Positions 2,129 through 50,302 of a stretch of 50,302 nt of DNA are shown here, in pieces. A program made the position numbers and the translations under genes. The stretch is from an uncultured Candidatus Saccharibacteria bacterium (GTDB taxonomy: Bacteria > Patescibacteriota > Minisyncoccia > Phycocordibacterales > SBAW01), in NCBI GenBank assembly GCA_964566795.1, contig CAZMIU010000001.1, positions 280,789 to 331,090 of the forward strand. Reading direction: 5' to 3'. Under the pieces are notes generated by a model. That model saw only the letters and a list, made by a program, of their open reading frames with translations, was not told where the DNA came from and searched no databases. Position 1 is the stretch's first letter, and the number at the start of each line of letters is the position of its first letter.

Positions 2129-2214
2129 ACGAAAAAGGGCGAAAAAATAGTCTGGCCTGCGAGGGCGTAGCCCGGAGACAGGAGACCCGAGGACTTTTTT
2201 TCGCTCTTTTTCGT
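2129..2214 (+). repeat. Palindromic element family 1, copy A (intergenic, between divergent pth and lepB)
   Basis: Arms ACGAAAAAGGGCGAAAAAATAGTCT (2129-2153) and GGACTTTTTTTCGCTCTTTTTCGT (2191-2214); core AGTCTGGCC...GGAGACCCGAGGACT shared with copies at 16770 and 39422. Confidence 0.88.
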
Positions 2215-2825: not shown

Positions 2826-3950
2826 ATGAGTACGCCAAAACTCTCCCCCGCCACATTTCTCAAATTGTCGCAGGATGTCGCATCGTTTTACGGCTTTAAG
2901 CCGCTGCGCGAGATAGAGCGCCAGATACCGACCCAGACGCTCAAGCGCGGCGCCCACAACTTTACCTACGCCTCGATGGCCCTTGCACACGCGGCAGGCA
3001 CCGTGCCCTCGATGGGCTACTACGCCAGCACGTCTCCGGCGCACCTCCCGCACGGCCTCTCGCCGCGCGAGGTGGGCGAGTTTGGCCTACAAGTCTCGGG
3101 CGCCCAAGAGAGCGTGGGCGAGGTCCTTCTGCTTAAGACTGTCTCGACCATACTCCTGGAGTGGGGCGGCACGGCACGCGTGCGCATTAACGCGCTTGGT
3201 GACAAGGACTCGCGTGCGCGCTTTGCCCGCGAGCTTAGCAGCTATGTGCGCCGCCAGGCCCACAACCTGCCAGAGGAGTGGCGCGAGCGCGCCGCCGAGG
3301 ACCCGCTTGCTTTTTTGGCAAGCCAAGACGAGGCCTGCCGCGCCGTGGCAGAGACCGGCCCCAGAGCTATGAACTTTCTGTCAGAAAAGAGCCGGGCGCA
3401 TTTTAGGGAGATGCTTGAGCACCTCGAGCATCTAAACATGCCCTATGAGCTCGACGATATGCTTGTGGGCGACGAGCGCGAGCCGCGTGTTGCTTTTGCC
3501 ATAGACACTAGCGACGCCACGGTCATTACTTCTGTGGGAGGCCGCTTTGATGACCACGTACGCCGCATCTCGGGCAAAAAGGACGCCACATCGGTGCATG
3601 CCAGCCTCTACTTTAGGAAAAAAGGGCTGGTGCCCCAGCATTTTGCCCTTGAGGGCTCCTCGGGCAAGGCACGCATCTACTTTATACAGCTGGGGCTCAG
3701 GGCCAAGCTCCAGAGCCTAAAAGTGAGCGATATTCTGCGCGAGGCGCGCATCCCGGTCCTGCAGTCGTTTGATTCATCCAAGCTCTCTCCCCAGCTCCAG
3801 GCTGCACAGCAGGCGGGGGTATCGCACCTCATTATTATGGGCCAGCGCGAGGCCCTGGACGGCACGGTCATAGTGCGCGCGGCCGACAACAGCGCCCAAA
3901 CTACCCTCGGGCTAACCCAGCTCCCCCGCTACCTCAAGACGTTGCGCTAG
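2826..3950 (+). CDS. Degenerate histidyl-tRNA synthetase-like protein (class II aaRS fold plus HGTP anticodon-binding domain)
   Basis: FYGFKPL, EFGLQVSG, INALGDKDSR, GGRFD and a C-terminal SKLSPQLQAAQQAG...IIMGQRE anticodon-binding pattern; canonical motif 2 residues not recognisable; 374 aa. Confidence 0.7.
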   Translation: MSTPKLSPATFLKLSQDVASFYGFKPLREIERQIPTQTLKRGAHNFTYASMALAHAAGTVPSMGYYASTSPAHLPHGLSPREVGEFGLQVSGAQESVGEVLLLKTVSTILLEWGGTARVRINALGDKDSRARFARELSSYVRRQAHNLPEEWRERAAEDPLAFLASQDEACRAVAETGPRAMNFLSEKSRAHFREMLEHLEHLNMPYELDDMLVGDEREPRVAFAIDTSDATVITSVGGRFDDHVRRISGKKDATSVHASLYFRKKGLVPQHFALEGSSGKARIYFIQLGLRAKLQSLKVSDILREARIPVLQSFDSSKLSPQLQAAQQAGVSHLIIMGQREALDGTVIVRAADNSAQTTLGLTQLPRYLKTLR

Positions 3951-7694: not shown

Positions 7695-8741
7695 ATGTTT
7701 GACCTTGCCATTATAGGCGGTGGCCCCGCTGGTGTCGCTGCGGGGGTATATGCCGCGCGTAAGCGGCTCAAGACCGTCTACATTACGGAGACCTTTGGCG
7801 GGCAATCCACCGACTCACTCGATATCCAAAACTGGATAGGCACGCCGCATATCCCGGGCGTGGAGCTCGCTAAAACCTTTGAGGCGCACCTGCGCGAGTA
7901 TGCGGGAGATGTTGTAGACATCAAAGCTCCGGAGCGGGCTACTAACGTTGAAAAAGGGGCGAATGGCTTTGTAATTACCACAGACAAAGGTTCGTACGAG
8001 GCTAAAACTGTACTCGTAGCCACAGGCGGCGCACGGCGCAAGCTCGAGGTACCGGGCGCGGCACAATACGAAAACAAGGGCATTGTCTACTGCGCCTCCT
8101 GCGACGGCCCGCTCTTTGCGGGCCAGGACACCGTCGTCATTGGCGCAGGCAACGCCGGGTTTGAGACCGCGGCGCAGCTTTTGGCCTATGCCAAGTCGGT
8201 AACACTCCTCAACCGCCGCGATACGTTTGAGAAGGCCGACGCCAAAACCGTAGAGGCGGTTAAGGCGCACCCCCACATGACCATCCTCACCAACACCGAG
8301 CCTGTGGAGGTCAAAGGCGACAAGTTTGTATCGGGCATCGTGGTTAAAAACACACAGACCGGCGAGCAAAAAGAGATTCCTGCGGGTGGTATCTTTGTCG
8401 AGATCGGGGCGCTCCCGGCGACCGGCTTTGTGCAGGGGTTAATTGAGATGGACCAGTTTGGCCATATCAAGGTAGACCCAAGAACACAGCGTGCGTACCC
8501 ACTTACCCAAACTCAAAAAAATGATTCAGATGCAAGGCGTGGGGAAAGTGCAGAGGGAGGCGTACCTCAAGGTACGATGACCGAGGCACAGGGGCCCCAC
8601 AACGCAGCAGATGAGTCGTTTTTTGGAGTTTGGGCTGCGGGCGACTGCACCGACGGCCTATACCACCAAAACAACATCGCTGCGGGCGACGCGGTTAAGG
8701 CGCTGGAGGACATCTACCTCTATATCAAGTCACACGCCTAG
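7695..8741 (+). CDS. trxB: Thioredoxin reductase-like FAD oxidoreductase carrying an in-frame palindromic insertion
   Basis: GGGPAG, CASC redox centre, GAGNAG, GVWAAGD; about 40 extra residues before GVWAAGD. Confidence 0.88.
   Translation: MFDLAIIGGGPAGVAAGVYAARKRLKTVYITETFGGQSTDSLDIQNWIGTPHIPGVELAKTFEAHLREYAGDVVDIKAPERATNVEKGANGFVITTDKGSYEAKTVLVATGGARRKLEVPGAAQYENKGIVYCASCDGPLFAGQDTVVIGAGNAGFETAAQLLAYAKSVTLLNRRDTFEKADAKTVEAVKAHPHMTILTNTEPVEVKGDKFVSGIVVKNTQTGEQKEIPAGGIFVEIGALPATGFVQGLIEMDQFGHIKVDPRTQRAYPLTQTQKNDSDARRGESAEGGVPQGTMTEAQGPHNAADESFFGVWAAGDCTDGLYHQNNIAAGDAVKALEDIYLYIKSHA
8506..8634 (+). repeat. Palindromic element family 2, in-frame in trxB (129 bp = 43 codons)
   Basis: 23-nt arms CCCAAACTCAAAAAAATGATTCA and TGAGTCGTTTTTTGGAGTTTGGG; inner stems GCGTGGGG/CCCCACAACGC, GTGC/GCAC and CGTACC-TCAA-GGTACG. 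Confidence 0.85.
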
Positions 8742-12030: not shown

Positions 12031-12426
12031 ATGGGCAAACAAACGATTCTTATTGTAGGCGTACTTATTGCACTGGTTGCGGGGTTTGGCGGAGGCTACG
12101 CGGTGCGCGGGGCCCAGGTCGGGCAAGGCATGCACATGATGTCAGGCGGGATGATGATGAACGATGACAATATGGGCGGCCACGGAATGCAGGGCGCCAT
12201 GGACGAAATGATGGAGGGCCTGCGCGGCAAAACGGGCGACCAGTTTGACCAGGCCTTCCTCTTGGAGATGATCATGCACCACGAGGGTGCGGTCGAGATG
12301 GCCGAGGCGGCGCTGCAGCGTGCCAAACACCAGGAGATTAAGGATATGGCGCAGGCGATTATCTCGGCGCAGACCAGCGAGATTACCCAGATGAAGCTGT
12401 GGCAAAAAAATTGGTATACCCGGTAA
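12031..12426 (+). CDS. DUF305 (CopM-like) Met/His-rich metal-binding protein
   Basis: Met-rich stretch and FDQAFLLEMIMHHEGAVEMA motif. Confidence 0.9.
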   Translation: MGKQTILIVGVLIALVAGFGGGYAVRGAQVGQGMHMMSGGMMMNDDNMGGHGMQGAMDEMMEGLRGKTGDQFDQAFLLEMIMHHEGAVEMAEAALQRAKHQEIKDMAQAIISAQTSEITQMKLWQKNWYTR

Positions 12427-12441
12427 CCCCCTTGCCGGTTA

Positions 12442-12474
12442 AAGAAAAACACCCCGTACTGGGGTGTTTTTCTT
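12442..12474. terminator. Bidirectional terminator
   Basis: AAGAAAAACACCCC-GTACT-GGGGTGTTTTTCTT. Confidence 0.85.
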
Positions 12475-12952
12475 ACCCGCGGCGTGCGGCGTCTATTGCC
12501 GCTACGTCTATCTTCTGCATCTTCATCATCGCCTCAAAGGCGCGCTTTGCCTCATCACCGCCCTTGGCCAGAGCCTCGGTGAGCGTGCGCGGCGTAATCT
12601 GCCACGACACGCCCCACTTGTCCTTGCACCAGCCGCACGCGCTTTCCTGCCCGCCGTTTTGTACAATCGCGTTCCAATACTTGTCTGTCTCCTCTTGGCT
12701 CTCTGTCGCTATCTGGAAGGAAAAAGCCTCGCTCTGCTTAAAAGTAGGGCCGCCGTTAAGGCCAATGCAGGGTATGCCCACTACCGTAAACTCTACGGTC
12801 AGTACATCACCCGCCTTGCCGTCCGGGAAGTCGGACGGGGCATAAAAAATCTTGCCCACCGAGCTCTCGGGGAACGTGGCGGCATAAAACTCCGCTGCGG
12901 CAAGCGCCTCTTTGTCGTACCACAGGCACACTGTGTTTTTGGGTGTAGTCAT
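12473..12952 (-). CDS. VOC family protein (PhnB / 3-demethylubiquinone methyltransferase-like)
   Basis: NTVCLWY, LNGGP, CGWCKDKWGVSWQI; start re-called at MTTPK (TATACT-N8-ATG). Confidence 0.92.
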   Translation of the reverse strand: MTTPKNTVCLWYDKEALAAAEFYAATFPESSVGKIFYAPSDFPDGKAGDVLTVEFTVVGIPCIGLNGGPTFKQSEAFSFQIATESQEETDKYWNAIVQNGGQESACGWCKDKWGVSWQITPRTLTEALAKGGDEAKRAFEAMMKMQKIDVAAIDAARRG

Positions 12953-13044: not shown

Positions 13045-13428
13045 ATGGCTCATATTCGTATCATCTCCGAGAAAGACGGGATCCGCACTGTCACCGACGG
13101 CGAGGCTACCTGGAGGGAATTTCAGTCGTCGCGCCAGGGCCCAATACACTGGTTCGAGGACGAGGTGCTGCTCCACCCGAGCACGTTCTACACCAAGACA
13201 CTCAACGTGCTCTTCCGCTTGTTTTTCTTGGTGCCGCTCAGCATCCCGGTGTACCAACTGGCTCTCATCTACTACGTGAGCCCATGGGTGGGGCTTAGCG
13301 GTTGGGCGTGGTGGCAGATCGCCATCAAGCTCACAGTTCTTGGCATGCTCTGGGTGCCGGTCATACTTCTTCATATCTGGGTGGCTCAGAGCTCGGTGAG
13401 AGAAAATTACATCGACACAGACGACTAG
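13045..13428 (+). CDS. Hypothetical membrane protein (ORFan cassette)
   Basis: AGGAGGT SD 4 nt before ATG 13045; two C-terminal TM helices; own terminator 13433-13464. Confidence 0.75.
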   Translation: MAHIRIISEKDGIRTVTDGEATWREFQSSRQGPIHWFEDEVLLHPSTFYTKTLNVLFRLFFLVPLSIPVYQLALIYYVSPWVGLSGWAWWQIAIKLTVLGMLWVPVILLHIWVAQSSVRENYIDTDD

Positions 13429-13432
13429 TCGC

Positions 13433-13464
13433 AACACGGCCCCCAAAGGGGCCGTGTTTTTGTT
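13433..13464 (+). terminator. Intrinsic terminator
   Basis: AACACGGCCCC-CAAA-GGGGCCGTGTT followed by T-tract. Confidence 0.82.
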
Positions 13465-13691
13465 TTGTTGGCCTGGCCACAAGTCAAAATCGCTCGTCAG
13501 CGATTTTGCTTGCCGGCCCCGGCGCACGGTTTTGCCAGTGCAAAACAACGTTTGCGCCCGTCACAAGTGGGAGAAAATTGGAACCAACTAGTAGTGGAGC
13601 TTCACCAATGGCAGCGGTTTGGTAAAGCGTTAGACGGGGCTTTCAACAAGTAGGGGTTGCACCACCAGTGGCCAGTTGGTAGTATTTTGGT

Positions 13692-16015: not shown

Positions 16016-16160
16016 ATCCTGCCCCTTTTCTAAAGAACGTCCGGCACACCGCGCACCGTCCCACGCATGAGGCTACAGCAGATATCCTGATGCCTACATG
16101 AAGCCGACACACGTTGCACCAGAGGATTGAAATATAGGGTTTTTGTGGTACTCTTTTGCC

Positions 16161-17291
16161 ATGAAAGTGCTCGCCATAGAGACCTCCTGCGACGAAACAG
16201 GCATCGCACTCCTTGAGGGCCGCCACAGTGGCGAGACAATGGAGTTTGTGACACTCAAGGCCGAGCTCCTGAGCCAGGCCAAACTCCACGCCCCGTTTGG
16301 AGGCGTCTTCCCCGCGCTCGCCAAGCGCGAGCACACCAAAAACTTGCCGGTGTTGTTTGAGCCGTTTAAAGATGACCAGTTTGACGCCGTAGTTGTGACA
16401 GCCGGACCCGGACTCGAGCCTGCGCTCTGGACAGGCATCGAGTTTGCCAAACAGGTCGCGAGCGAGCGCGGCGTGCCGGTGCTGCCGGTAAACCACATGG
16501 AGGGGCACATTATCTCCTCTCTTGCAGAACGACACCCTGACAAACTTGAGAATGTCGGGATGTCAGTAATTAAAGACGTGCAGTTTCCGGTGCTTGCTCT
16601 GCTAATTTCTGGCGGGCACACGGAGTTAGTACTTACGAAGGATTGGTTTGAGTACGAGATGCTCGGCCGCACGCTCGACGACGCCGTGGGCGAGGCGTTT
16701 GACAAAGTGGCGAGGATGCTCGAGTTGCCCTACCCCGGCGGCCCGGAGATTTCCAAACTTGCATCAAAAAGCCGGGCAGAAAAAGCTACGGGCAAAAGTC
16801 TGGCCGAATCAAATGAGGAGACCCGAGGACTTTTGAACGGAGGTTTTTCTGCCCGGCTCCCGCGCCCCATGCTCAATACCAACTCGTGTGACATGTCTTT
16901 TTCCGGTTTAAAAACAGCTGCACTGTACGCACTAAAAGACAAAAATCTGGCTGCAGAGGAAAAAGCTGCGTTTGCCGCGGAGTTTGAGGATGCCGTGGCC
17001 GAGGTGTTGTGTGCCAAGGTGCGCCGCGCCCTTAATGAAAGCGGCGCCAAGACATTTGTCATTGGCGGCGGTGTGGCGGCCAACCGCTACATCCGCGAGG
17101 AGCTGCAAAAGATAATTCTCGAGGAGTTCTCCGATGTCGAGTTCAGGCTCCCCCACCTCTCCATCACCGGCGACAACGCAGTCATGATAGGCGAGGCCGC
17201 GCTCGCCCGCCTCCTCTTGGGGCACCAGACCCTCGATTCCGCAAGGTTCGACCTTGCGGTAGAGGCCCGCGGCAACCTTTCTTTGGCTTAA
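16161..17291 (+). CDS. tsaD: tRNA N6-threonylcarbamoyladenosine transferase TsaD carrying an in-frame palindromic insertion
   Basis: IETSCDET, HMEGH, SGGHT, DDAVGEAFDK, SFSGLKT, TGDNAVMIG. Confidence 0.96.
   Translation: MKVLAIETSCDETGIALLEGRHSGETMEFVTLKAELLSQAKLHAPFGGVFPALAKREHTKNLPVLFEPFKDDQFDAVVVTAGPGLEPALWTGIEFAKQVASERGVPVLPVNHMEGHIISSLAERHPDKLENVGMSVIKDVQFPVLALLISGGHTELVLTKDWFEYEMLGRTLDDAVGEAFDKVARMLELPYPGGPEISKLASKSRAEKATGKSLAESNEETRGLLNGGFSARLPRPMLNTNSCDMSFSGLKTAALYALKDKNLAAEEKAAFAAEFEDAVAEVLCAKVRRALNESGAKTFVIGGGVAANRYIREELQKIILEEFSDVEFRLPHLSITGDNAVMIGEAALARLLLGHQTLDSARFDLAVEARGNLSLA
16770..16858 (+). repeat. Palindromic element family 1, copy B (in-frame in tsaD)
   Basis: 18-nt arms AGCCGGGCAGAAAAAGCT and AGGTTTTTCTGCCCGGCT; core AGTCTGGCC (16797-16805) and GGAGACCCGAGGACT (16817-16831). 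Confidence 0.9.
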
Positions 17292-20102: not shown

Positions 20103-20627
20103 ATGGCACGAGACAGGCGATCATTGTTTGAGTGGCTCACCGGGAGCCAGGGCGAGGCAGACTACTCTTTTGACGAGCTTGAGCAGGGTGGTGCCTCTTA
20201 CGCTGCACCGGCTCCGGCCCGCTCCAAGCATGTGCCTATCGCTCACCCATCACGCAACGCAGAACCCGCACCTCTGGCCGAAGAGGTCGAGGAGCCGGCA
20301 GGAGAGCTTGCGGTAGACGTCTACCAGACCCCCACGCATATTGTGATAAAGGCCATGATAGCCGGCGTTAAGCCCGACGACCTCGATGTCTCTATCACGC
20401 GCGACATGGTAACCATACGCGGCAAGCGCGAGAGGCATACCGAGGGCACCGCGGGCGACTTCTTCTTTCAGGAGTTGTATTGGGGCGCGTTTAGCCGCAC
20501 TATAGTGCTGCCCCAGGAGGTGGAGATAGAGGAGGCCGAGGCCTCTGAGAAGCACGGGCTCCTTATAGTGCGCCTGCCCAAGCTCGACAAGGGCCGCCAA
20601 GCAAAGCTCAAAGTTAAGTCCAACTAA
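20103..20627 (+). CDS. Hsp20 / alpha-crystallin small heat-shock protein
   Basis: VDVYQT...AGVKPDDLDVSI...WGAFSRTIVLP...GLLIVRLPK. Confidence 0.93.
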   Translation: MARDRRSLFEWLTGSQGEADYSFDELEQGGASYAAPAPARSKHVPIAHPSRNAEPAPLAEEVEEPAGELAVDVYQTPTHIVIKAMIAGVKPDDLDVSITRDMVTIRGKRERHTEGTAGDFFFQELYWGAFSRTIVLPQEVEIEEAEASEKHGLLIVRLPKLDKGRQAKLKVKSN

Positions 20628-20652
20628 AAAATCCCCTTCGGGGGATTTTTTA
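20625..20652. terminator. Bidirectional terminator
   Basis: TAAAAAATCCCC-TTCG-GGGGATTTTTTA. Confidence 0.85.
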
Positions 20653-20661
20653 GTATTGATG

Positions 20662-28428: not shown

Positions 28429-28469
28429 GCGCAGATGCAAAAGCCCCCGGTAAACCGGGGGCTTTCGCT

Positions 28470-32481: not shown

Positions 32482-32512
32482 AAAACGGCCCGGGGTTACC
32501 CCGGGCCGTTTT
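32482..32512. terminator. Bidirectional terminator (ORFan / groEL)
   Basis: AAAACGGCCCGGGG-TTA-CCCCGGGCCGTTTT. Confidence 0.85.
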
Positions 32513-37152: not shown

Positions 37153-39024
37153 ATGCCAGAAGAGAAAAAGCAACAGTCAGGCGCAGGCGGCCATCGCTCG
37201 CGCGGAGGCCGCACACGAGGGTTTGGTGGCCGCACAGGCCGCTCGCGCGGCCGTTTGCGCCAGGGCGGCCCCAAGCCGCACCAGGCACACCCGGTGCGCC
37301 CGGACATAGACACAAAAGTTAATCCGGATGAAAAGCCGGTCCCGCCGCTTGCCCCGGGCAACATCCGCATTATCCCGCTTGGAGGCGTAGAGGAAATAGG
37401 CCGCAACATGACCATGGTCGAGTTTGGCGACGACATTATCGCCATCGACTGCGGCTTCCAGTTTAGAGAGCAGGACACCCCGGGTGTGGACTACATTTTG
37501 CCCAACACCAAGTACATGGAGGAGCGCCGCGATCGCGTGCGCGGGCTCTTTATCACGCACGGCCACCTCGACCATATTGGCGGCATCCCCTACGTTATAG
37601 ACCGCATCGGCTACCCGCCCGTCTACACGCGCGCACTTACTGCCGTTATGATCCGCAAACGCCAGGAAGAGTTCCCCAACCTCAAGCCTTTGGACATCAA
37701 GGAGGTAGAGAAGGCCGACACCGTAACCGTGGGCAAGCTCAAGGTCCGGTTCTTTAGCGTGACCCACACCATCCCCGACGCCATGGGCGTCATTGTCGAG
37801 ACCCCGTACGGCGACCTTGTGTTTACAGGCGACCTCAAGGTCGACCACAACGACGGTGTCCCCACCCCCGAGGAGGAAAAGGAGTTTGCCTACTTTAAGG
37901 ACCGTAAAGTGCTCTTTTTGGCAGCCGACAGCACAAACTGCGAGCGCGCCGGCTTCTCTATCCCCGAGCGCGTGGTTACCAAAACGATGGACGACATTAT
38001 CGCAACCACGCCGGGCCGCCTTATTATTGGCACCTTCTCATCCCAGCTCGAGCGCCTTATGCGCATCATCGAGCAGGCCGAGCGCGTGGGCCGCAAGATA
38101 TTGGTTGAGGGCCGCTCGATGAAGGTCAACATCGAGATAGTAAAGCATCTGGGCCTCCTCAAGGTCTCCGACAAGACCTTTATCGACTCCGCCCAGCTTG
38201 AAAACTTCCCCGACCCTAAAGTCTTGGTACTTGCTACAGGCGCACAGGGCGACGAGTTTGCCGCGCTCATGCGCATCGCGATGAAGACGCACAAGTACGT
38301 CAAGATGAAAAAGGGCGACACGGTCGTGCTTTCCTCATCGGTCGTGCCGGGCAACGAGAGAAGCGTGCAGAAGCTCAAGGACAACCTCTCGCGCCAGGGC
38401 GCGCGCATCATCCACCGCGAGCAGATGGATGTGCATGCCTCCGGCCACGCCAACCGCGACGAGACCTTCTGGATCCACCAAAAGATCAATCCGCGCTTCT
38501 TTATGCCCATGCACGGCTACCACTACATGCTGCGCGTACACGCAGATATCGCCAAGGCCTGCGGCCGCCAGGAGGACGAGATTATTGTCCCGGACAACGG
38601 CGCCATACTCGAGATCAGAGACGAGGGGCAGAAAATTGTCCGTCTCAAGGAGTCGGCTCCCAATAGCCTAAGGCTCGTAGACGGCTTTGCTATCGGCGAC
38701 ATCCAGGAGGTTGTGATACGCGACCGCACCGTGCTCGCTCAAGAGGGCATGTTTGTCATCATCGCCACGGTGAACCCCAAGACTGGCAAGTTGCGCAAAT
38801 CGCCCGACATCATCTCGCGCGGCTTTGTCTACCTCAGAGAGTCTCAGGATCTCCTGAACCAGGCACGCATCCTGGTCAAGAAATCCATCGAGGACGCGGC
38901 CAAGGGTCAGCAGCCGGTCAACTTTGACTTTGTCAAAAACCAGGTCACCGACAACCTCGCCCGCTTCCTGTTTGAGAAGACCAACAAGCGCCCGATAGTG
39001 ATCCCGGTAGTCCTAGGCGTCTAG
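37153..39024 (+). CDS. rnj: Ribonuclease J with an RG-rich N-terminal extension
   Basis: PLGGVEEIGRNM, THGHLDHIG, HASGH, PMHG. Confidence 0.95.
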   Translation: MPEEKKQQSGAGGHRSRGGRTRGFGGRTGRSRGRLRQGGPKPHQAHPVRPDIDTKVNPDEKPVPPLAPGNIRIIPLGGVEEIGRNMTMVEFGDDIIAIDCGFQFREQDTPGVDYILPNTKYMEERRDRVRGLFITHGHLDHIGGIPYVIDRIGYPPVYTRALTAVMIRKRQEEFPNLKPLDIKEVEKADTVTVGKLKVRFFSVTHTIPDAMGVIVETPYGDLVFTGDLKVDHNDGVPTPEEEKEFAYFKDRKVLFLAADSTNCERAGFSIPERVVTKTMDDIIATTPGRLIIGTFSSQLERLMRIIEQAERVGRKILVEGRSMKVNIEIVKHLGLLKVSDKTFIDSAQLENFPDPKVLVLATGAQGDEFAALMRIAMKTHKYVKMKKGDTVVLSSSVVPGNERSVQKLKDNLSRQGARIIHREQMDVHASGHANRDETFWIHQKINPRFFMPMHGYHYMLRVHADIAKACGRQEDEIIVPDNGAILEIRDEGQKIVRLKESAPNSLRLVDGFAIGDIQEVVIRDRTVLAQEGMFVIIATVNPKTGKLRKSPDIISRGFVYLRESQDLLNQARILVKKSIEDAAKGQQPVNFDFVKNQVTDNLARFLFEKTNKRPIVIPVVLGV

Positions 39025-39813
39025 CGTCCTGCGTATTTCTCTCTCGCTTGCTCCGCGCTCCAAAAGGGCGCGGAGTTTGTTTGCGCGCTTTTGGCGGGTG
39101 CTGCCCTCAAACTTACTTTGTTTGGCGTAGTGCTTGCTTTTTTGGTTAAGCCGCACACCCTGGCGCTTGAGGTGCGAGCCGTAGTCCATAAGCGCCGCAT
39201 AAAAGTCCCTGGGCTGCATCTTAGACTTCTTTAGAGCCTGCTCAACAAGGGGCAAAAGCTCCCTGTCGCTTATACTAGTGTTTTGCAAAACACCAGAATA
39301 GATATGATGAAAGAAAACGGTGCGGATGTTTGTTTCTATAAACACCGTAGGCTCGTTAAAGGCAAATGCCTGGACTGCCGCAACAGTATATGGCCCAACA
39401 CCAGGGAGCTTTGCCCGCGAAGCGGAAACTTTCTGGAAAAATAGTCTGGCCCGCAAGCGCTCCGAGCGCGAGACGGGAGACCCGAGGACTTTTTTCTGGG
39501 AAGTTTCCGTGGAGAGTATCTTTCCTGTCTCCCACAGGTACTTGCCGCGGCGGTTGTAGCCCAGACCCTGCCAGGCTTTTAGCACGCGCGAGAGCGGTGC
39601 CATCGCAAGCACCCTAGGGGTCGGAAATAGTTTAAGCCAGCGCTCGTAGTACGGAATTACCCTCTCTACTTGGGTCTGCTGCAGCATCACCTCGCTCACC
39701 AAAATGCGGTACGGGTCGCGCGTGTGGCGCCAGGGCAAATGCCTGCGGGCGCTTGTCTTGTAGTGCTTTTTGAGCGCCGCTACAAGCTCCAAAATAGCCT
39801 TGTCGTGGCTCAT
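39013..39813 (-). CDS. mutY: MutY-like A/G-specific adenine glycosylase without the 4Fe-4S Cys motif, carrying an in-frame palindromic insertion
   Basis: LPWR, VSEVMLQQT, WQGLGYNRR, LPGVGPYT, ALMDYGS with no following Cys cluster. Confidence 0.85.
   Translation of the reverse strand: MSHDKAILELVAALKKHYKTSARRHLPWRHTRDPYRILVSEVMLQQTQVERVIPYYERWLKLFPTPRVLAMAPLSRVLKAWQGLGYNRRGKYLWETGKILSTETSQKKVLGSPVSRSERLRARLFFQKVSASRAKLPGVGPYTVAAVQAFAFNEPTVFIETNIRTVFFHHIYSGVLQNTSISDRELLPLVEQALKKSKMQPRDFYAALMDYGSHLKRQGVRLNQKSKHYAKQSKFEGSTRQKRANKLRALLERGASEREIRRTLDA
39422..39510 (+). repeat. Palindromic element family 1, copy C (in-frame and antisense in mutY)
   Basis: Arms GCGGAAACTTTCTGGAAAAATAGTCT and GGACTTTTTTCTGGGAAGTTTCCGT; core at 39443-39451 and 39476-39490. 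Confidence 0.9.
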
Positions 39814-40283: not shown

Positions 40284-40317
40284 AACAAAAAATCCCCCGG
40301 GTGGGGGATTTTTTGTT
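40284..40317. terminator. Bidirectional terminator
   Basis: AACAAAAAATCCCCC-GGGT-GGGGGATTTTTTGTT. Confidence 0.85.
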
Positions 40318-42798: not shown

Positions 42799-44340
42799 CT
42801 AGTCGGCGGGCTCTATCAACCCCAGTTTAATTAAACGGGCGTGTATCGAGCCGCGCTGGCGGCCAAACTCTTTGACCAGTGCGGCTACGCCTGTGCCCTC
42901 CTCAAACATGGTTGTGAGTTTGTCGTCGTCGTCTTGTGTCCAAGGCCTGTAGGCGTTGGGGTGTTTTTGGCGCAGTTTGTCGAGCTTCGACATCTCAACC
43001 TCTGGCTTAGGTTTGTTTGGGTCGGGTTCGTGCCCGCCGGATGCTTTAGTAAACTGCTTGTGCATGTCCTCAATCTCCTCGGGCGGCAGTTTGCCAAATA
43101 TCTCCTCCGCGCTCATCGAGGCCGCGCGAAACGCCTGGTCTCGCGCCAAAATGTCCGGGTGCACAGCCAGAGCGCGCTCGTTAATGCCAAGCAGGTAGAG
43201 CCCGCTTAGGTTGCGCACACGGCTTAAAGCCACATAGCCCTGCCCATACTCAAACGCGTCCGATAAGTCCATCACCGCGGCATCAAGACTCATCCCCTGG
43301 CTCTTGTGCACCGTAATAGCCCACGCCAGGCGCAGCGGCACCTGCGTTATCTGTGCCAACACGCGGTTGCCGTCGGCCACCTGCCAGGTGTCTGGCTCGG
43401 CCTCTATAACCTTGCCGGCACGGGTTGCCACCTTGGGCCAACCGGCGTCGCTCCAGCCCACCACCGTGCCGAGTGTGCCGTTAACGTATCCGTGCTCAAA
43501 GTTGTTGCGCGTAAACATCACCGTCGCGCCCTCTTTTAAAGAAAGCGTCCCGGGCGATAAGCATCCGCGCTTAAGCGCTTCCACCAGAGTGGTAGAGCCC
43601 GATGAGCGCATGTGGTATACCTTGAGCGCGTTCTCTATGCGCGACAGCGCCTCCTCGTTTATACGGTCTACGTCCTCGTTGTGGGTATAAAGTCTGGTGG
43701 CGTCCTCGGGGAGCTCGCCCACTTCGTGCCGCGTCTTGAGCAGTTCGCGATGCTCATCCTCAAGCTCGCCTTGGCGCATCGCACCCAATAGCCCCAAGAA
43801 CATGCCGTCGTCCTGGCGGTGCTGCTCGTGTAAGTAGCACGTAAGCGGGTTGGCGTCCTCCCACGCGCCTGACTCAAAGGCAAATTTGGTTGGCCCCTCA
43901 CGCGACACCGGCGGTAATTGAAAGAAGTCGCCCACAAAGACAACCTGCAGCCCGCCAAAGGGCTTGTCGCTACCGCGCAGGGTGGTAAGTGCGCGGTCTA
44001 CCAGTGTTAAGAGGTTGGCATCGAGCATAGACACCTCGTCAATGATAAGCACCTGGGCCGCGCGCACACGCCGCACCAGAGGCTCGCGCTCCATAAGCGC
44101 CTCAAGCTCCCAGTCGCTGAGTGACTTTTTAATCCCCACACCGCTCCAGGCGTGTATGGTCATACCGCCCACGTGTGTGGCGGCAATACCTGTAGAGGCG
44201 GTAATAGCGGGCTCTATGCCGCGTTCGCGCAGCCACGCCACATAGCGGTTAATAACGTAGGTCTTGCCTGCGCCCGGCTCGCCTGTAAGGAATACGTTGG
44301 CTCCGGTCTTGAGTATTGTCAGTGCCTGCTCCTGTGTCAT
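42799..44340 (-). CDS. Pif1-family 5'-3' helicase with a small C-terminal helical domain
   Basis: GEPGAGKT, DEVSM, GDFFQLPPV, ITVHKSQGMS, YVALSRV; C-terminal AYRPWTQDDDDKL...I..RL.KLG. Confidence 0.92.
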   Translation of the reverse strand: MTQEQALTILKTGANVFLTGEPGAGKTYVINRYVAWLRERGIEPAITASTGIAATHVGGMTIHAWSGVGIKKSLSDWELEALMEREPLVRRVRAAQVLIIDEVSMLDANLLTLVDRALTTLRGSDKPFGGLQVVFVGDFFQLPPVSREGPTKFAFESGAWEDANPLTCYLHEQHRQDDGMFLGLLGAMRQGELEDEHRELLKTRHEVGELPEDATRLYTHNEDVDRINEEALSRIENALKVYHMRSSGSTTLVEALKRGCLSPGTLSLKEGATVMFTRNNFEHGYVNGTLGTVVGWSDAGWPKVATRAGKVIEAEPDTWQVADGNRVLAQITQVPLRLAWAITVHKSQGMSLDAAVMDLSDAFEYGQGYVALSRVRNLSGLYLLGINERALAVHPDILARDQAFRAASMSAEEIFGKLPPEEIEDMHKQFTKASGGHEPDPNKPKPEVEMSKLDKLRQKHPNAYRPWTQDDDDKLTTMFEEGTGVAALVKEFGRQRGSIHARLIKLGLIEPAD

Positions 44341-44346
44341 ATATCC

Positions 44347-44447
44347 GCAAAATCAGAGTTTGTAAGAGTACGGATAATTTTTTGCTAAAAATTTCCTCAA
44401 GTCTCGTGTCGTCACACTTGCGAAGCCTCTTACAAACTCTATTTTGC
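44347..44447. repeat. Palindromic element family 3 (intergenic, immediately upstream of pif1)
   Basis: Arms GCAAAATCAGAGTTTGTAAGAG (44347-44368) and CTCTTACAAACTCTATTTTGC (44427-44447) enclose two inner hairpins and GCGAAGC. Confidence 0.8.
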
Positions 44448-46887: not shown

Positions 46888-46930
46888 AGGCGTACAGTAT
46901 AGCAAAATGGCCCCTAATGGGGCTGTTTTG

Positions 46931-47251
46931 CTACTGCTGGCCGGGTACAGACGAGTCGCCGAGCCCTGGGTCGTCTGAGGCGCTACCGGTGTTTATCGTG
47001 GTGCTGGCGCTCCCCTGTATGACTGGAGTCGTCTGAGCCGGGGTTGGCGTGGGGCATGGGGCAAAGGTGCAGTTGGGCCCAGTGCGGCCCACCGAGGTGC
47101 CGTCCGGACAAACAAAAGCCTCCATAGTGCAGGCCTGAGGGCCGCCCCCAATACCAGGCATTGCCGGCCCGCCATTAAGCGACCACCAATACCAACCCCC
47201 GAGCACTGCAACAAGTACAATTAATATAGCGACAATAGTGGATGTCTTCAT
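46931..47251 (-). CDS. Small membrane-anchored protein with CTMEAFVCPDG...GPNC.FAPC disulfide module
   Basis: TM anchor plus a 4-Cys module; TATACT-N6-ATG. Confidence 0.82.
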   Translation of the reverse strand: MKTSTIVAILIVLVAVLGGWYWWSLNGGPAMPGIGGGPQACTMEAFVCPDGTSVGRTGPNCTFAPCPTPTPAQTTPVIQGSASTTINTGSASDDPGLGDSSVPGQQ

Positions 47252-48442: not shown

Positions 48443-49474
48443 CTAAGATCTAAGAAAAAGTCCAAAAACTGTCTCTCTGTGCCATTTTAATGAGATTAGA
48501 TTAGGCCGAGATCGAGAATCTTGTGGCAGAAAAACCGGCTTTCCTTCTAATTCTTTAAGATACTCCACATGCATGGCTTGAGGGTGTACTTTTATTCTAT
48601 AATCGTCGGTAACAGTAAAAAAACCTTTGTCAAAGGCCCAATGTAAATTTCTTTCAAAAGCTATCCCGTTGGAAGGGTGTGGCCCTCCTCCAAATGCACG
48701 AGCTTGTAGGTGTGCTGCCTCAAGATTAAAAAAGTCTTTATAATTAATTAAGAGTTTCTTCCCAGTTACAGCGCATTTGTATTCGTAGTAATGCAATATT
48801 AAGTCCCTAAAAGATCTGCTTCTCAATACTCTGGTTTCCACCGATTTATCCTCCTCCAATATAACTGATTGGGAAACAGGCTCCTTTAATGCAAATTCAA
48901 GAACTTCATTAGGTATAACTTTCTTGCCTACTTCTTTTATACGTCTAAGTCCATCGAGAAATGCTAATTTGGAAAGTGGAACTAGCGCGTGGCTCTTTTT
49001 TGGACCAACTGCAATCTCCTGAAGTATCGAATCAAGGTTGCCATATTCTCGCGATCCAGGAATATACCGCAATGTTTTATAAAAAATGTTTACTAATTCT
49101 TTAGTTTCCGGCTCAAGCACACGTAATTTTACAATTACAACAATATCGTTAGGTTTGAAAAAATTTGCACCCGGATCGATCTCCCCATTTAGATAAAGCC
49201 TATATTCATCCCTATTTTCCCCATCAGGTCCTGTAGCATATTTACTGTTATGGTATACATACCTCGAAGAAACAGTCTCATCTGAATTTACTGAAAAAAT
49301 ATCGAGCAGAACATGATCGTTTAGAGCAACCTTACTTAACGGAGGGAAGAAGTTAATTGCCTTCTTTGAAATTAGAAAATACCTCCCCCCTCCTCCTGGA
49401 CGACCTTTCCTAAACCCCAACTCTTGAGGCTGCAGTCTCCTTATATAAGCTAACTCGTCGAATTCATACTCCAT
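48443..49474 (-). CDS. HNH endonuclease (putative restriction enzyme)
   Basis: YEYKCAVTG...LEAAHL...NGIAF..NLHWAFDKG; AT-rich DNA; overlaps the methyltransferase gene. Confidence 0.88.
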   Translation of the reverse strand: MEYEFDELAYIRRLQPQELGFRKGRPGGGGRYFLISKKAINFFPPLSKVALNDHVLLDIFSVNSDETVSSRYVYHNSKYATGPDGENRDEYRLYLNGEIDPGANFFKPNDIVVIVKLRVLEPETKELVNIFYKTLRYIPGSREYGNLDSILQEIAVGPKKSHALVPLSKLAFLDGLRRIKEVGKKVIPNEVLEFALKEPVSQSVILEEDKSVETRVLRSRSFRDLILHYYEYKCAVTGKKLLINYKDFFNLEAAHLQARAFGGGPHPSNGIAFERNLHWAFDKGFFTVTDDYRIKVHPQAMHVEYLKELEGKPVFLPQDSRSRPNLISLKWHRETVFGLFLRS

Positions 49475-50302
49475 AACCTTGATGTCTCTTGTTCTACAAG
49501 ATTATCATCCAAAAAGGAAGCTACCGATTCTGCAACAGCCTGCGCAAGCAACGGGGGTACAGCATTTCCGATCATTTTATATTGATCCCCCATAGAGCCC
49601 AAAAACTCAAAATCGTCAGGGAATGACTGTAACCGAGCGGCCTCTCGTACGGTTATTGAGCGAGCCTGGTCTGGGTCGGGATGTATATGGCGCAATCCAT
49701 CTTTATGCAAATGTGACACAATAGTGTTACTTTGTTTGTTTGGCTCTAATACGTAATACTTATGTACGCTAGATACTTTGCCTGTCTTTTCTGTATATAG
49801 CTTTTTTAGTGCCTCGGCTGAGGCATACTTACGTTTAGTCCTCCGAAGATCGAGCGCAAGTTCTTTAAAGATCGCAATGTCCCTTGTATTATGAAACCTG
49901 GGGCTGTGATTGAGAATGTTGGTTGTTGCAGGTATGTGAGAATTTTTCTCTTTTTTATTCTTATTCACTGCAAACTTTGGTAAGTCAAATATAGCCTCGG
50001 CAACGGTCTTCTTCCTCGTTTTATGCGAAGTAAGCGTGTTTGTATAGAAGTCGCACAACAACTCCTGCGGATCCTGTTCAAAAGACTCATCTCGAATACC
50101 AAAGAGCACAACGCGTCTCCTGTTTTGCGGCACACCAAATTCTGCCGCATCAACTTGGGCATATTTTTCAATGTCTTCAACAAGAGAGTAGCCAATCTCC
50201 TTGAAGGTCTGTCTAACCCTTTCAACAATAGGTATGCCCCCAGGTCGGGCACTAAGCATGCCAGGGACGTTCTCAAATATAAATGCGTGAGGTTGTAGCC
50301 TG
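49450..50302 (-). CDS. DNA (cytosine-5) methyltransferase, 5' part outside the window
   Basis: FENVPGM at the edge, FGVPQNRRRV (motif VIII), ITVREAARLQSFPD (IX), IGNAVPP (X). Confidence 0.93.
   Translation of the reverse strand, partial: RLQPHAFIFENVPGMLSARPGGIPIVERVRQTFKEIGYSLVEDIEKYAQVDAAEFGVPQNRRRVVLFGIRDESFEQDPQELLCDFYTNTLTSHKTRKKTVAEAIFDLPKFAVNKNKKEKNSHIPATTNILNHSPRFHNTRDIAIFKELALDLRRTKRKYASAEALKKLYTEKTGKVSSVHKYYVLEPNKQSNTIVSHLHKDGLRHIHPDPDQARSITVREAARLQSFPDDFEFLGSMGDQYKMIGNAVPPLLAQAVAESVASFLDDNLVEQETSRLWSMNSTS

Follow-up and report, generated by a model that had tools for sequence, protein, structure and literature searches.

Which kind of genetic element can stand with one and the same core in an intergenic spacer and, translated in frame, inside two conserved enzymes? 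This question is raised by a stretch of 50,302 nucleotides from an uncultured Candidatus Saccharibacteria bacterium (GenBank assembly GCA_964566795.1, contig CAZMIU010000001.1, positions 280,789 to 331,090; the whole stretch is called the window in the following), in which an earlier note, made from the letters alone, had described three hairpins with a fixed core and covarying stems. Here, it was found that these hairpins belong to a dispersed and apparently undescribed family, and that the pairing of their closing stem and tip hairpin is clearly under selection. With fair confidence we interpret the family as non-autonomous palindromic repeats of Patescibacteria, similar in kind to repetitive extragenic palindromes (REPs), bacterial interspersed mosaic elements (BIMEs) and Rickettsia palindromic elements (RPEs), which fold as single-stranded DNA.

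Three hairpins with a common core

In the window, exactly three matches to the core pattern AGTCTGGCC-N(5-35)-GGAGACCCGAGGACT are present (positions 2149-2195, 16797-16831 and 39443-39490, each on the + strand). The pattern was matched in none of 100 dinucleotide-preserving shuffles of the window (chance expectation 0), and relaxing the 15-mer to up to three mismatches yielded no extra match in the window. The gap between the two core boxes comprises 11-24 nt and the hairpins comprise 86-89 nt; pattern match and arm positions bear out the claim of the earlier note that three loci share an exact core within hairpins of this length. The + strands of copies A, B and C fold with energies of -43.9, -48.5 and -46.4 kcal/mol (z = -4.6 to -6.7), each into a single long hairpin. 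The inner stems differ between the copies yet pair, as had been described: CCTG/CAGG versus CCCG/CGGG and GGGC-GTA-GCCC versus GCGCT-CCG-AGCGC. A covariance model built from 96 exact-core copies (MAFFT alignment A2; for the collection see below) recognizes copies A, B and C as its only significant matches in the window. The copies and the genes around them are:

2129-2214, + strand: copy A, complete hairpin of 86 nt in the intergenic spacer of the divergent genes pth and lepB; 84.2 bits
2129-2147 / 2196-2214: closing arms of copy A, 95% complementary
2149-2157, + strand: 5' core box AGTCTGGCC of copy A, exact match; its invariance in the 96-copy alignment is by construction
2158-2180, + strand: variable tip hairpin of copy A, TGCGA-GGGC-GTA-GCCC-GGAGACA, with a C(GTA)G triloop
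2181-2195, + strand: 3' core box GGAGACCCGAGGACT of copy A; in the consensus fold its residues AGAC and GA stay without a partner
2125-2128, + strand: GGAG directly outside the 5' arm of copy A
2216-2219, + strand: GTAG, the 3' GNAG motif, directly outside the 3' arm of copy A
16770-16858, + strand: copy B, hairpin (89 nt) with a short tip (GAATCAAATGA), sense and translated within tsaD; 57.3 bits
16770-16800 / 16828-16858: closing arms of copy B, 87% complementary
16797-16831, + strand: core and tip of copy B
39422-39510, + strand: copy C, hairpin (about 88 nt), antisense to a mutY-like gene and translated within it; 84.9 bits
39423-39441 / 39491-39509: closing arms of copy C, 84% complementary
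39443-39490, + strand: core and tip of copy C
1578-2108, - strand: pth (peptidyl-tRNA hydrolase), left neighbor of copy A, start codon 20 nt from the element
2268-2825, + strand: lepB (signal peptidase I), right neighbor of copy A
16143-17291, + strand: tsaD, host of copy B; the insert encodes about ...SKSRAEKATGKSLAESNEETRGLLNGGFSAR..., and kin copies lie in Pfam TsaD open reading frames (ORFs)
39013-39813, - strand: HhH-GPD (MutY-like) glycosylase gene, host of copy C; the insert encodes TETSQKKVLGSPVSRSERLRARLFFQKVSA

Copies B and C are both in frame with their host ORFs, sense in tsaD and antisense in the mutY-like gene, which agrees with the earlier statement that two copies are translated in conserved enzymes. 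Between copy A and the lepB start lie the hexamers TTGCAT (2234-2239) and TACAAT (2256-2261), 16 nt apart, which are kept in all orthologues of this spacer with and without the element and may represent the lepB promoter.

Anatomy and covariation of the hairpin

The unit of the family is one imperfect hairpin of about 70-120 nt, the measured range being 71-122 nt. On the folding strand it is composed, from 5' to 3', of a GNAG-like motif, the 5' arm, AGTCTGGCC, the tip, GGAGACCCGAGGACT, the 3' arm and GNAG. The 5' arm of about 20 nt is A-rich with a consensus of roughly RRAAA..TYY.RRAAAAW, the 3' arm of about 20 nt is T-rich, and within the arms, at a distance of about 6-8 nt to the core, an internal loop of opposed purines is located. 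The consensus fold joins AGTCT to GGACT (with a T-G pair among them), GG to CC and CC to GG (alignment columns 25-29/82-86, 30-31/78-79 and 32-33/72-73), and the unpaired purine-rich residues of the core are located on the 3' strand only. The tip hairpin varies in length between 10 and 35 nt across the copies and is hypervariable in sequence. The center is most conserved and the outer arm positions are least informative (0.0-0.3 bits); just outside both ends a degenerate GNAG reaches 0.4-0.7 bits per position, of which GTAG is one variant. The arms show a weak shared consensus and, in addition, consensus sequences of subfamilies. That the outer arms differ per copy with pairing kept, as noted earlier, is therefore right for the pairing, which is selected, but the arms are part of the element and follow consensus sequences of subfamilies.

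In alignment A2, 477 two-sided changes at paired positions were counted compared to 216.5 +/- 17 in shuffles (0/500 shuffles reached this number). In an independent metagenome set, which was fitted to the model and is hence biased toward the structure, 90.6% of the cells are paired and 753 two-sided changes were counted compared to 219 +/- 19, and sliding the partner columns reduced pairing to at most 62%. The pairing of both the closing stem and the tip hairpin is clearly under selection.

The folded strand

With RNA parameters 91/96 copies, and with DNA parameters 95/96 copies, have a + strand that is more stably folded than its complement. In the arms alone, which lie outside the search pattern, 101 G:T are opposed to 15 A:C combinations (p about 8e-17), and the arm mismatches are purine-purine in 197 and pyrimidine-pyrimidine in 15 cases. 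The excess of G:T and of purine-purine in the arms indicates that the selected form is one single strand. Among 194 tip loops, 81 triloops, with 27 of the type C(GNA)G, but only two GNRA loops and one UNCG loop were found. In DNA, GNA triloops such as d(GCGAAGC) have an unusual stability, whereas structured RNAs are dominated by GNRA and UNCG loops. With respect to lepB, the folding strand at the pth-lepB locus is placed upstream of the promoter-like hexamers, and with respect to pth it is the reverse complement of whatever leader this gene has. The triloop-rich tips, the many antisense copies in genes (see below) and this strand placement suggest that the folded form is probably DNA, and that the element most likely acts as folded single-stranded DNA, not RNA.

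Size and distribution of the family

The exact core was found in 92 stretches of GTDB species-representative genomes, with 96 copies including the three of the window, and in at least 120 metagenome stretches. All named genome records that carry the element are metagenome-assembled genomes (MAGs) of Patescibacteria, mostly of Parcubacteria/Paceibacteria, and the carriers encompass Adler-, Kaiser-, Nomura- and Zambryskibacteria, other Parcubacteria/Paceibacteria and MAGs labelled Saccharibacteria. This supports the proposal of the earlier note of a multi-copy family of Patescibacteria. The number of exact-core copies is modest, with up to seven per genome and three per 50 kb in the window; in viral contigs no exact-core match was found. 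The covariance model detects further copies beyond the window, in the flanks of other loci, with cores that have one to five changed positions or are shortened. The core, originally called fixed, is thus strongly conserved but not invariant, and it looks fixed partly because the copies were collected with an exact pattern.

A scan of the window at Rfam gathering thresholds identified RNase P RNA and tRNAs only, with no family match to the element; when E values up to 10 were admitted, the only matches of copies A and C were generic microRNA hairpin models, with 10-19 bits against cut-offs of 45-96. Literature text searches, including the core sequence, yielded no description of the family, for one query among the matches listed. 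As supposed before, no Rfam family corresponds to the hairpins, which apparently are undescribed.

In CAZYUH, the closest GTDB relative, exact-core copies are absent altogether, and the two orthologous loci that were examined are both empty. Among 70 further MutY and TsaD loci that were checked, the element is present in L108 and L109 only (loci are given by L numbers). The contigs of L022 and L062, assigned to an Adlerbacteria MAG and a "Peribacteria" MAG that were obtained from the same site, carry an identical element with identical flanks; mis-binning is likely, and the Peribacteria label should therefore be disregarded for taxonomic breadth.

Empty sites and the inserted unit

As judged by comparing the letters of filled and empty sites, the whole hairpin is the inserted unit. 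In tsaD, the distance between the sequences encoding AKREHxKNLP and GPGLEPALW is exactly 54 nt in 12 orthologues and 126 nt in L099, in which the extra 72 nt compare with a hairpin copy of 71 nt. For the site of copy B, the orthologues comprise an empty form of 57 nt and decayed and truncated copies, next to the 111 nt of the window, and for the mutY site homologues without the insert of copy C exist (alignment A1). Seven orthologous pth-lepB spacers (L312-L318; Pth identity 52-85%), gathered regardless of the presence of the element, are all without copy A; the window and L300 differ from them by the hairpin 2129-2214, with ends that are fixed only to a few bases. Empty orthologous sites, which had been expected, thus exist at tsaD and pth-lepB. 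Four of the seven genomes that are empty at pth-lepB bear the family at other loci, showing that presence varies by locus. Furthermore, copies at unrelated loci have 90-95% identical arms in different flanks (e.g., L038, L305, L009), by which the whole hairpin including its arms is the dispersed unit. In some genomes, such as L313, the -35-like box and the pth start codon adjoin each other, so that hardly any spacer is left between the divergent genes pth and lepB.

No target-site duplication was found: the GNAG motifs at the two ends differ in their variable base, and the comparisons of filled with empty sites showed none either. At copy A, the 5' GNAG-like motif is present at about the same place in the empty orthologues, as read from the alignment at this one locus only, and the 5' GNAG may be a feature of the target. 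It was also considered that the arms are an inverted duplication of the flank, as suggested by the gain of 54 nt in tsaD compared to a hairpin of 87 nt. This was rejected by the 72/71 nt of L099, by empty sites of copy A that are without both arms, and by the shared arms in unrelated flanks.

Copies inside genes

If a genic copy is defined by an ORF of 200 or more codons that extends by 60 nt or more beyond the copy on either side, 65 of 97 copies are genic, 39 in antisense and 26 in sense orientation, and all frames are used; as noted earlier, the element thus occurs both in spacers and in frame within conserved enzymes. Hosts identified by Pfam act in replication and repair, i.e., DNA polymerase I (PolA; twice), DnaE, UvrA (twice), UvrD, RecJ and RecG, and in translation and tRNA modification, i.e., ArgRS, IleRS, MnmA (twice; one gene with two copies), GatA, Dus and TsaD. 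Others are RseP (twice), ParB and an HtrA-like protease, besides the MutY-like gene of the window. The inserted peptides comprise 24-35 residues, most of them hydrophilic (S, P, G, E, K, R and Q are abundant), and their sequence depends on the frame. The earlier statement that the element remodels proteins holds in the sense of these added residues alone.

On average 3.54 of the six frames of an element are free of stops; the corresponding values are 1.76 for shuffles and 2.64 for segments drawn at random from the same loci. Open frames and stop-codon depletion together argue that the inserts are translated, rather than bypassed or spliced out, as far as reading frames can tell. The copies show that the element survives where no gene is broken, i.e., in intergenic spacers or in in-frame loops and linkers of large housekeeping proteins. 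Among 18 non-ORF loci no copy lies inside an RNA gene, and two adjoin tmRNA genes: in L066 the copy (3792-3886) is 13 nt upstream of the tmRNA gene on the same strand, and in L076 the copy (508-589) is about 78 nt upstream on the opposite strand.

Two of the genes show further peculiarities. L072 (495-4004) encodes a class I aminoacyl-tRNA synthetase ORF of 1170 aa with the element at about residue 880 and a histidine-phosphatase domain (PF00300) at residues 500-662, within the match of the catalytic domain. In the tsaD orthologue of L094 (177-1283) an in-frame stop is located at the conserved Cys of IETSCDETG, for which an error of sequencing, a pseudogene or recoding are conceivable reasons.

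Evolution of resident copies

Many exact-core copies are orthologous between genomes. Orthologues of copy A in the same position and orientation are found in L300, L025, L019 and L201, and the arms at this locus show compensatory changes (GGGCG/CGCTC, GCGCG/CGCGC and CAATAG/CTATTG). The states of the pth-lepB locus are five intact copies, seven clean empties and no decayed remnant; a clean loss by slippage across the hairpin is plausible.

Across GTDB genomes, the identity of the tips is 0.62 for copies at other loci of the same genome, 0.52 for copies at the orthologous locus of another genome (p = 0.013) and 0.47 for unrelated pairs (p = 1.5e-8). Tips that are more alike within a genome than between orthologues suggest concerted evolution, either by gene conversion or by re-copying, and conversion between resident copies would help to account for the uniform core. 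Between L197 and L284 the flanks are 88% and the arms 91% identical and the core is the same, and the tip is unrelated. In the comparison of L034/L284 with L197 (metagenome sample Ga0172380 and MAG CAYRYM) the tip was replaced in place. At the mutY site, core and tip of L108 (819-914, + strand) have the opposite orientation to those of L109 (3312-3407, - strand) and of the window (39422-39510); the left arm is homologous throughout, and L108 is without one 21-nt arm. This switch of orientation goes back either to an in-place inversion or to another insertion event.

Adjacent copies can be mutually inverted, and head-to-head and tail-to-tail pairs or clusters with spacings of 2-17 nt are present in L230, L052, L231 and L089:

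L230, 12317-12408 (- strand) / 12423-12514 (+ strand) and 13409-13502 (+ strand) / 13505-13593 (- strand): two pairs, four copies in 1.3 kb around a tsaD gene
L052, 3505-3690: closely spaced copies
L231, 2588-2908: closely spaced copies
L089, 6218-6791: closely spaced copies, two in the MnmA gene

The GC skew on the element strand is negative in 66/97 copies (the sense copies divide 13/13 and the antisense copies 5/34) and is mostly explained by the orientation of the host gene. To the earlier account, these comparisons would add the GNAG at both ends, old orthologous copies with compensation, and an apparent exchange of tips within genomes.

Relation to known systems

REPs have a length of 20-40 bp with stems of 5-13 bp, and GTAG- and CGTC-tagged REPs carry an unpaired tetranucleotide tag, form head-to-head dimers and have translated copies in replication and repair genes, e.g., uvrA (PMC3733652). 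The hairpins described here are, like REPs and BIMEs, short imperfect palindromes in multiple copies of which the fold of one strand matters. They have a tag-like tetranucleotide at the foot of the stem (GTAG in REPs, a degenerate GNAG in the element), occur in head-to-head and tail-to-tail dimers and clusters and are likewise translated inside replication and repair genes. However, they are built differently: their length is about 70-120 nt, the closing stem has about 20 bp, the core is conserved and bulged, and the tip forms a hairpin of its own. The GNAG motif lies at both ends, and there is no sequence similarity to REPs. While REPs are mainly extragenic, about two thirds of the element copies are genic, and no gene for the REP-associated tyrosine transposase RAYT (TnpA_REP, HUH Y1) was found in a weak search of element-bearing loci.

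RPEs insert in frame in Rickettsia housekeeping genes and are said to encode a conserved peptide, and their mode of movement is not established (PMC10969869). As with RPEs of about 100-150 bp, housekeeping genes that are unrelated to each other, in a reduced genome, contain an in-frame palindrome, and the protein tolerates the added peptide. In contrast to RPEs, the element uses all six frames and the peptides differ, its center is conserved and its stems covary. Phylum and sequence differ too, the difference being judged from peptides and taxonomy and not from a direct comparison with RPE sequences.

The insertion sequences IS608 and ISDra2 are recognized in the form of a folded single strand whose hairpins are irregular; they insert 3' of a short target tetra- or pentanucleotide, make no target duplications and do not require terminal inverted repeats. 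The element resembles the IS200/IS605 group in the strand-specific fold and the absence of a duplication, and possibly in a 5' GNAG that seems to have pre-existed (at one locus, as read from the alignment). However, a single hairpin spans the whole element instead of distinct left and right subterminal hairpins, neither a TnpA nor a TnpB gene was seen (among window ORFs and in the weak RayT search), and the orientation of the copies gives no clear sign of a bias with respect to replication. The attC sites of integrons are recombined as folded single strands as well; structure and short boxes are conserved, extrahelical bases lie on one strand and the terminal structure is variable, with widely differing lengths. 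Core and tip of the element form in a similar manner two short helices with unpaired bases on the 3' strand and a tip of 10-35 nt. Unlike attC, the element has AGTCTGGCC...GGAGACCCGAGGACT in place of RYYYAAC/GTTRRRY boxes, an extra closing stem of 20 bp and solitary copies inside genes instead of arrays of cassettes beside an integrase gene; no integrase gene is present among the scanned window ORFs.

Small non-autonomous repeats that are able to fuse in frame with ORFs are also known from the Coxiella QMITE, from intragenic ERIC and from cyanobacterial MITEs (miniature transposable elements with inverted repeats) (PMC10969869, PMC5896051). These have conserved terminal inverted repeats and usually target duplications, whereas the element has neither.

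Interpretation and alternative explanations

In the interpretation favored here, the selected form would be the folded single + strand, most likely as DNA. A trans-acting structure-specific enzyme, for which a HUH/RAYT-like transposase or a recombinase of folded single strands are candidates, would recognize the bulged core; the whole hairpin inserts without target duplication. Resident copies would persist for a long time, with core and tip kept alike within the genome by gene conversion or re-copying and with arms that drift by compensatory changes, until copies are lost by clean deletion of the hairpin. Both the selfish nature of the family and the recognition of its structure by a particular enzyme are presumed in this scheme.

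Several observations weigh against it. No transposase, integrase or other partner gene was found among 30 window ORFs scanned with Pfam, in line with the earlier note, which had seen no transposase; these 30 largest ORFs are housekeeping genes and a pair of an HNH and a C5-methylase gene. Phmmer and jackhmmer searches with E. coli RayT, a single-sequence query of low sensitivity, found nothing in 1.8 Mb of element-bearing loci, which are not whole genomes. The co-occurrence with HUH nucleases or reverse transcriptases proposed earlier has accordingly yielded no HUH, RAYT or reverse-transcriptase partner, the RayT search of the loci being weak. Many copies are orthologous across genera in the same position and orientation with compensatory arm changes, and third codon positions are 77% identical within the element and 57% in the rest of mutY; between L206 and L304 the element is likewise better conserved than the host gene. 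Such conservation above that of the host gene could reflect a host function rather than selfish persistence. The old orthologous copies fit a purely recent-mobile selfish picture less well, and point to gene conversion or selection. Moreover, a neighbor-joining tree of Pth and LepB interleaves filled and empty genomes, so that repeated clean losses or repeated gains at one site are needed. The orientation of the copies is without a clear signal of replication direction, which a strict lagging-strand mechanism on single-stranded DNA would predict, and the choice of DNA over RNA is drawn from loop statistics and context.

The main rival takes up the conservation: the hairpin or cruciform would be a DNA structural site that is maintained by the host and bound or processed by a chromosomal protein, e.g., for nucleoid organization, replication or repair, or DNA uptake; selection would keep it at fixed loci, and in-frame coding would merely be a constraint on it. 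It would account for cross-genus orthologous copies with intact core and compensatory arms, for an element that is better conserved than the neighboring codons, for the pattern of intact or absent copies at pth-lepB, and for the variable tip length, by which the halves of the core meet only in the folded form. We nevertheless consider it unlikely, given that close relatives without a copy at a locus bear the family elsewhere, that CAZYUH lacks exact-core copies, with an empty site at each of the loci examined, and that orthologous copies at the tsaD site are decayed, truncated or absent; dispersed copies of the same subfamily and new insertions show copying beyond conservation. A function of the hairpin as structured RNA, acting in transcripts as cis-regulatory hairpin, protein-binding motif, processing site or ribozyme, is less likely again. 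Conserved junction bases with covarying helices are typical of functional RNAs, wobbles of the G:U type are confined to one strand, and the shape of A-tract, hairpin and U-tract resembles the terminator-like hairpins of this genome, which are weak matches of the covariance model. These points are opposed by the lack of any Rfam family match even at E up to 10 beyond the generic hairpin models, by the 39 of 65 genic copies that are antisense to the host mRNA, by the folding strand at pth-lepB, which is complementary to a pth leader and lies upstream of the putative lepB promoter, by tips that are mostly triloops with hardly any GNRA or UNCG, and by a presence that varies among orthologues.

Two other explanations are contradicted by the defining features of the family. 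An improbable one is a classical MITE, i.e., an element that arose by deletion from a DDE-type insertion sequence and moves in double-stranded form via terminal inverted repeats, with target duplications. A length of about 90 bp, inverted-repeat arms and dispersed copies without own coding capacity would suit such an element, but its ends should be conserved and its center variable, which is the reverse of what is observed, target duplications were not found, and strand-asymmetric G:T pairing is unexpected for a substrate that stays double-stranded. Least probable of all is that the proteins are left unaltered by translational bypass, as in T4 gene 60, or by excision at the RNA level. In favor of it, the hairpin is stable and flanked on both sides by GNAG motifs containing GGA/GAG, yet the frames are open through most genic copies (an unselected insert of about 90 nt is estimated to be open and in frame in less than 10% of cases), stop codons are depleted, and copies are present in both orientations.

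Some more specific candidates were rejected. A small intron or translational bypass is at odds with host frames that stay open. Kink-turns, bulge-helix-bulge motifs and the cores of hammerhead, twister, pistol, hatchet and HDV ribozymes did not fit on inspection, and Rfam was negative. An intrinsic (bidirectional) terminator is similar in shape alone, as copy A lies upstream of both divergent genes and most copies are in ORFs. An autonomous element between paired copies was also looked for; there is no transposase-like ORF between them in L203 and L230. L203 (1086-3583) contains the same ORFs and the element twice in inverted order, which is probably a palindromic assembly artefact centered near the hairpin.

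A variant with a partner of its own, which we consider doubtful, is a lineage-specific system for folded single-stranded DNA that reads the bulged core, in analogy to integrase on attC or RAYT on REPs, and swaps cassettes of core plus tip between resident hairpins. Such an exchange would explain tips that are alike within a genome, tip swaps between relatives that are 88% identical, and identical cores across orders of Patescibacteria. If this were true, the hairpins would be long-lived "landing pads" in essential genes, possibly with a role for the host.

Other palindromes and a nuclease gene of the window

A second long palindromic insert is located at 8506-8634, with 28-nt arms, CCCAAACTCAAAAAAATGATTCAGATGC and GCAGATGAGTCGTTTTTTGGAGTTTGGG, and 73 nt between them. 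It lies in frame in a thioredoxin-reductase-like ORF (7695-8741), just past the end of the Pfam match (residue 265), and has a similar shape, i.e., an A-run, a GATTC/GAGTC pair with T-G and a T-run, but a different core, and the covariance model is negative for it. It may be a member of a sister family. A further hairpin at 44350-44445, with 19-nt arms, a center of 58 nt and a dissimilar core, is found directly upstream of a Pif1-like helicase gene (42799-44340, - strand).

Short palindromes of an A-run, a GC stem and a T-run, perfect or nearly so, lie at gene ends (12442-12474, 20623-20654, 28437-28468, 32482-32512, 40284-40317 and 46900-46933). They resemble bidirectional terminators, share the A...T framing of the element arms and are the only other, weak matches of the covariance model in the window (E 0.1-10). 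At the end of the window (48443-50259), overlapping genes for an HNH endonuclease (PF13391) and for a C-5 cytosine methyltransferase probably form a restriction-modification pair. Apart from this HNH gene, which shows no link to the elements, the window has no nuclease-like "mobile" gene.

Meaning for Patescibacteria

The genomes of Patescibacteria are tiny and usually thought to be poor in repeats, so that a dispersed repeat family placed in frame in core enzymes is unexpected. The element is a ready source of lineage-specific protein insertions, and since the inserts lengthen and diversify conserved marker proteins, alignments and phylogenies are affected; long hairpins can in addition produce assembly artefacts. 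With a nearly invariant bulged core, compensating stems and homogenization of tips within genomes, the family constitutes a tractable case for how REP- and RPE-like repeats spread and persist.

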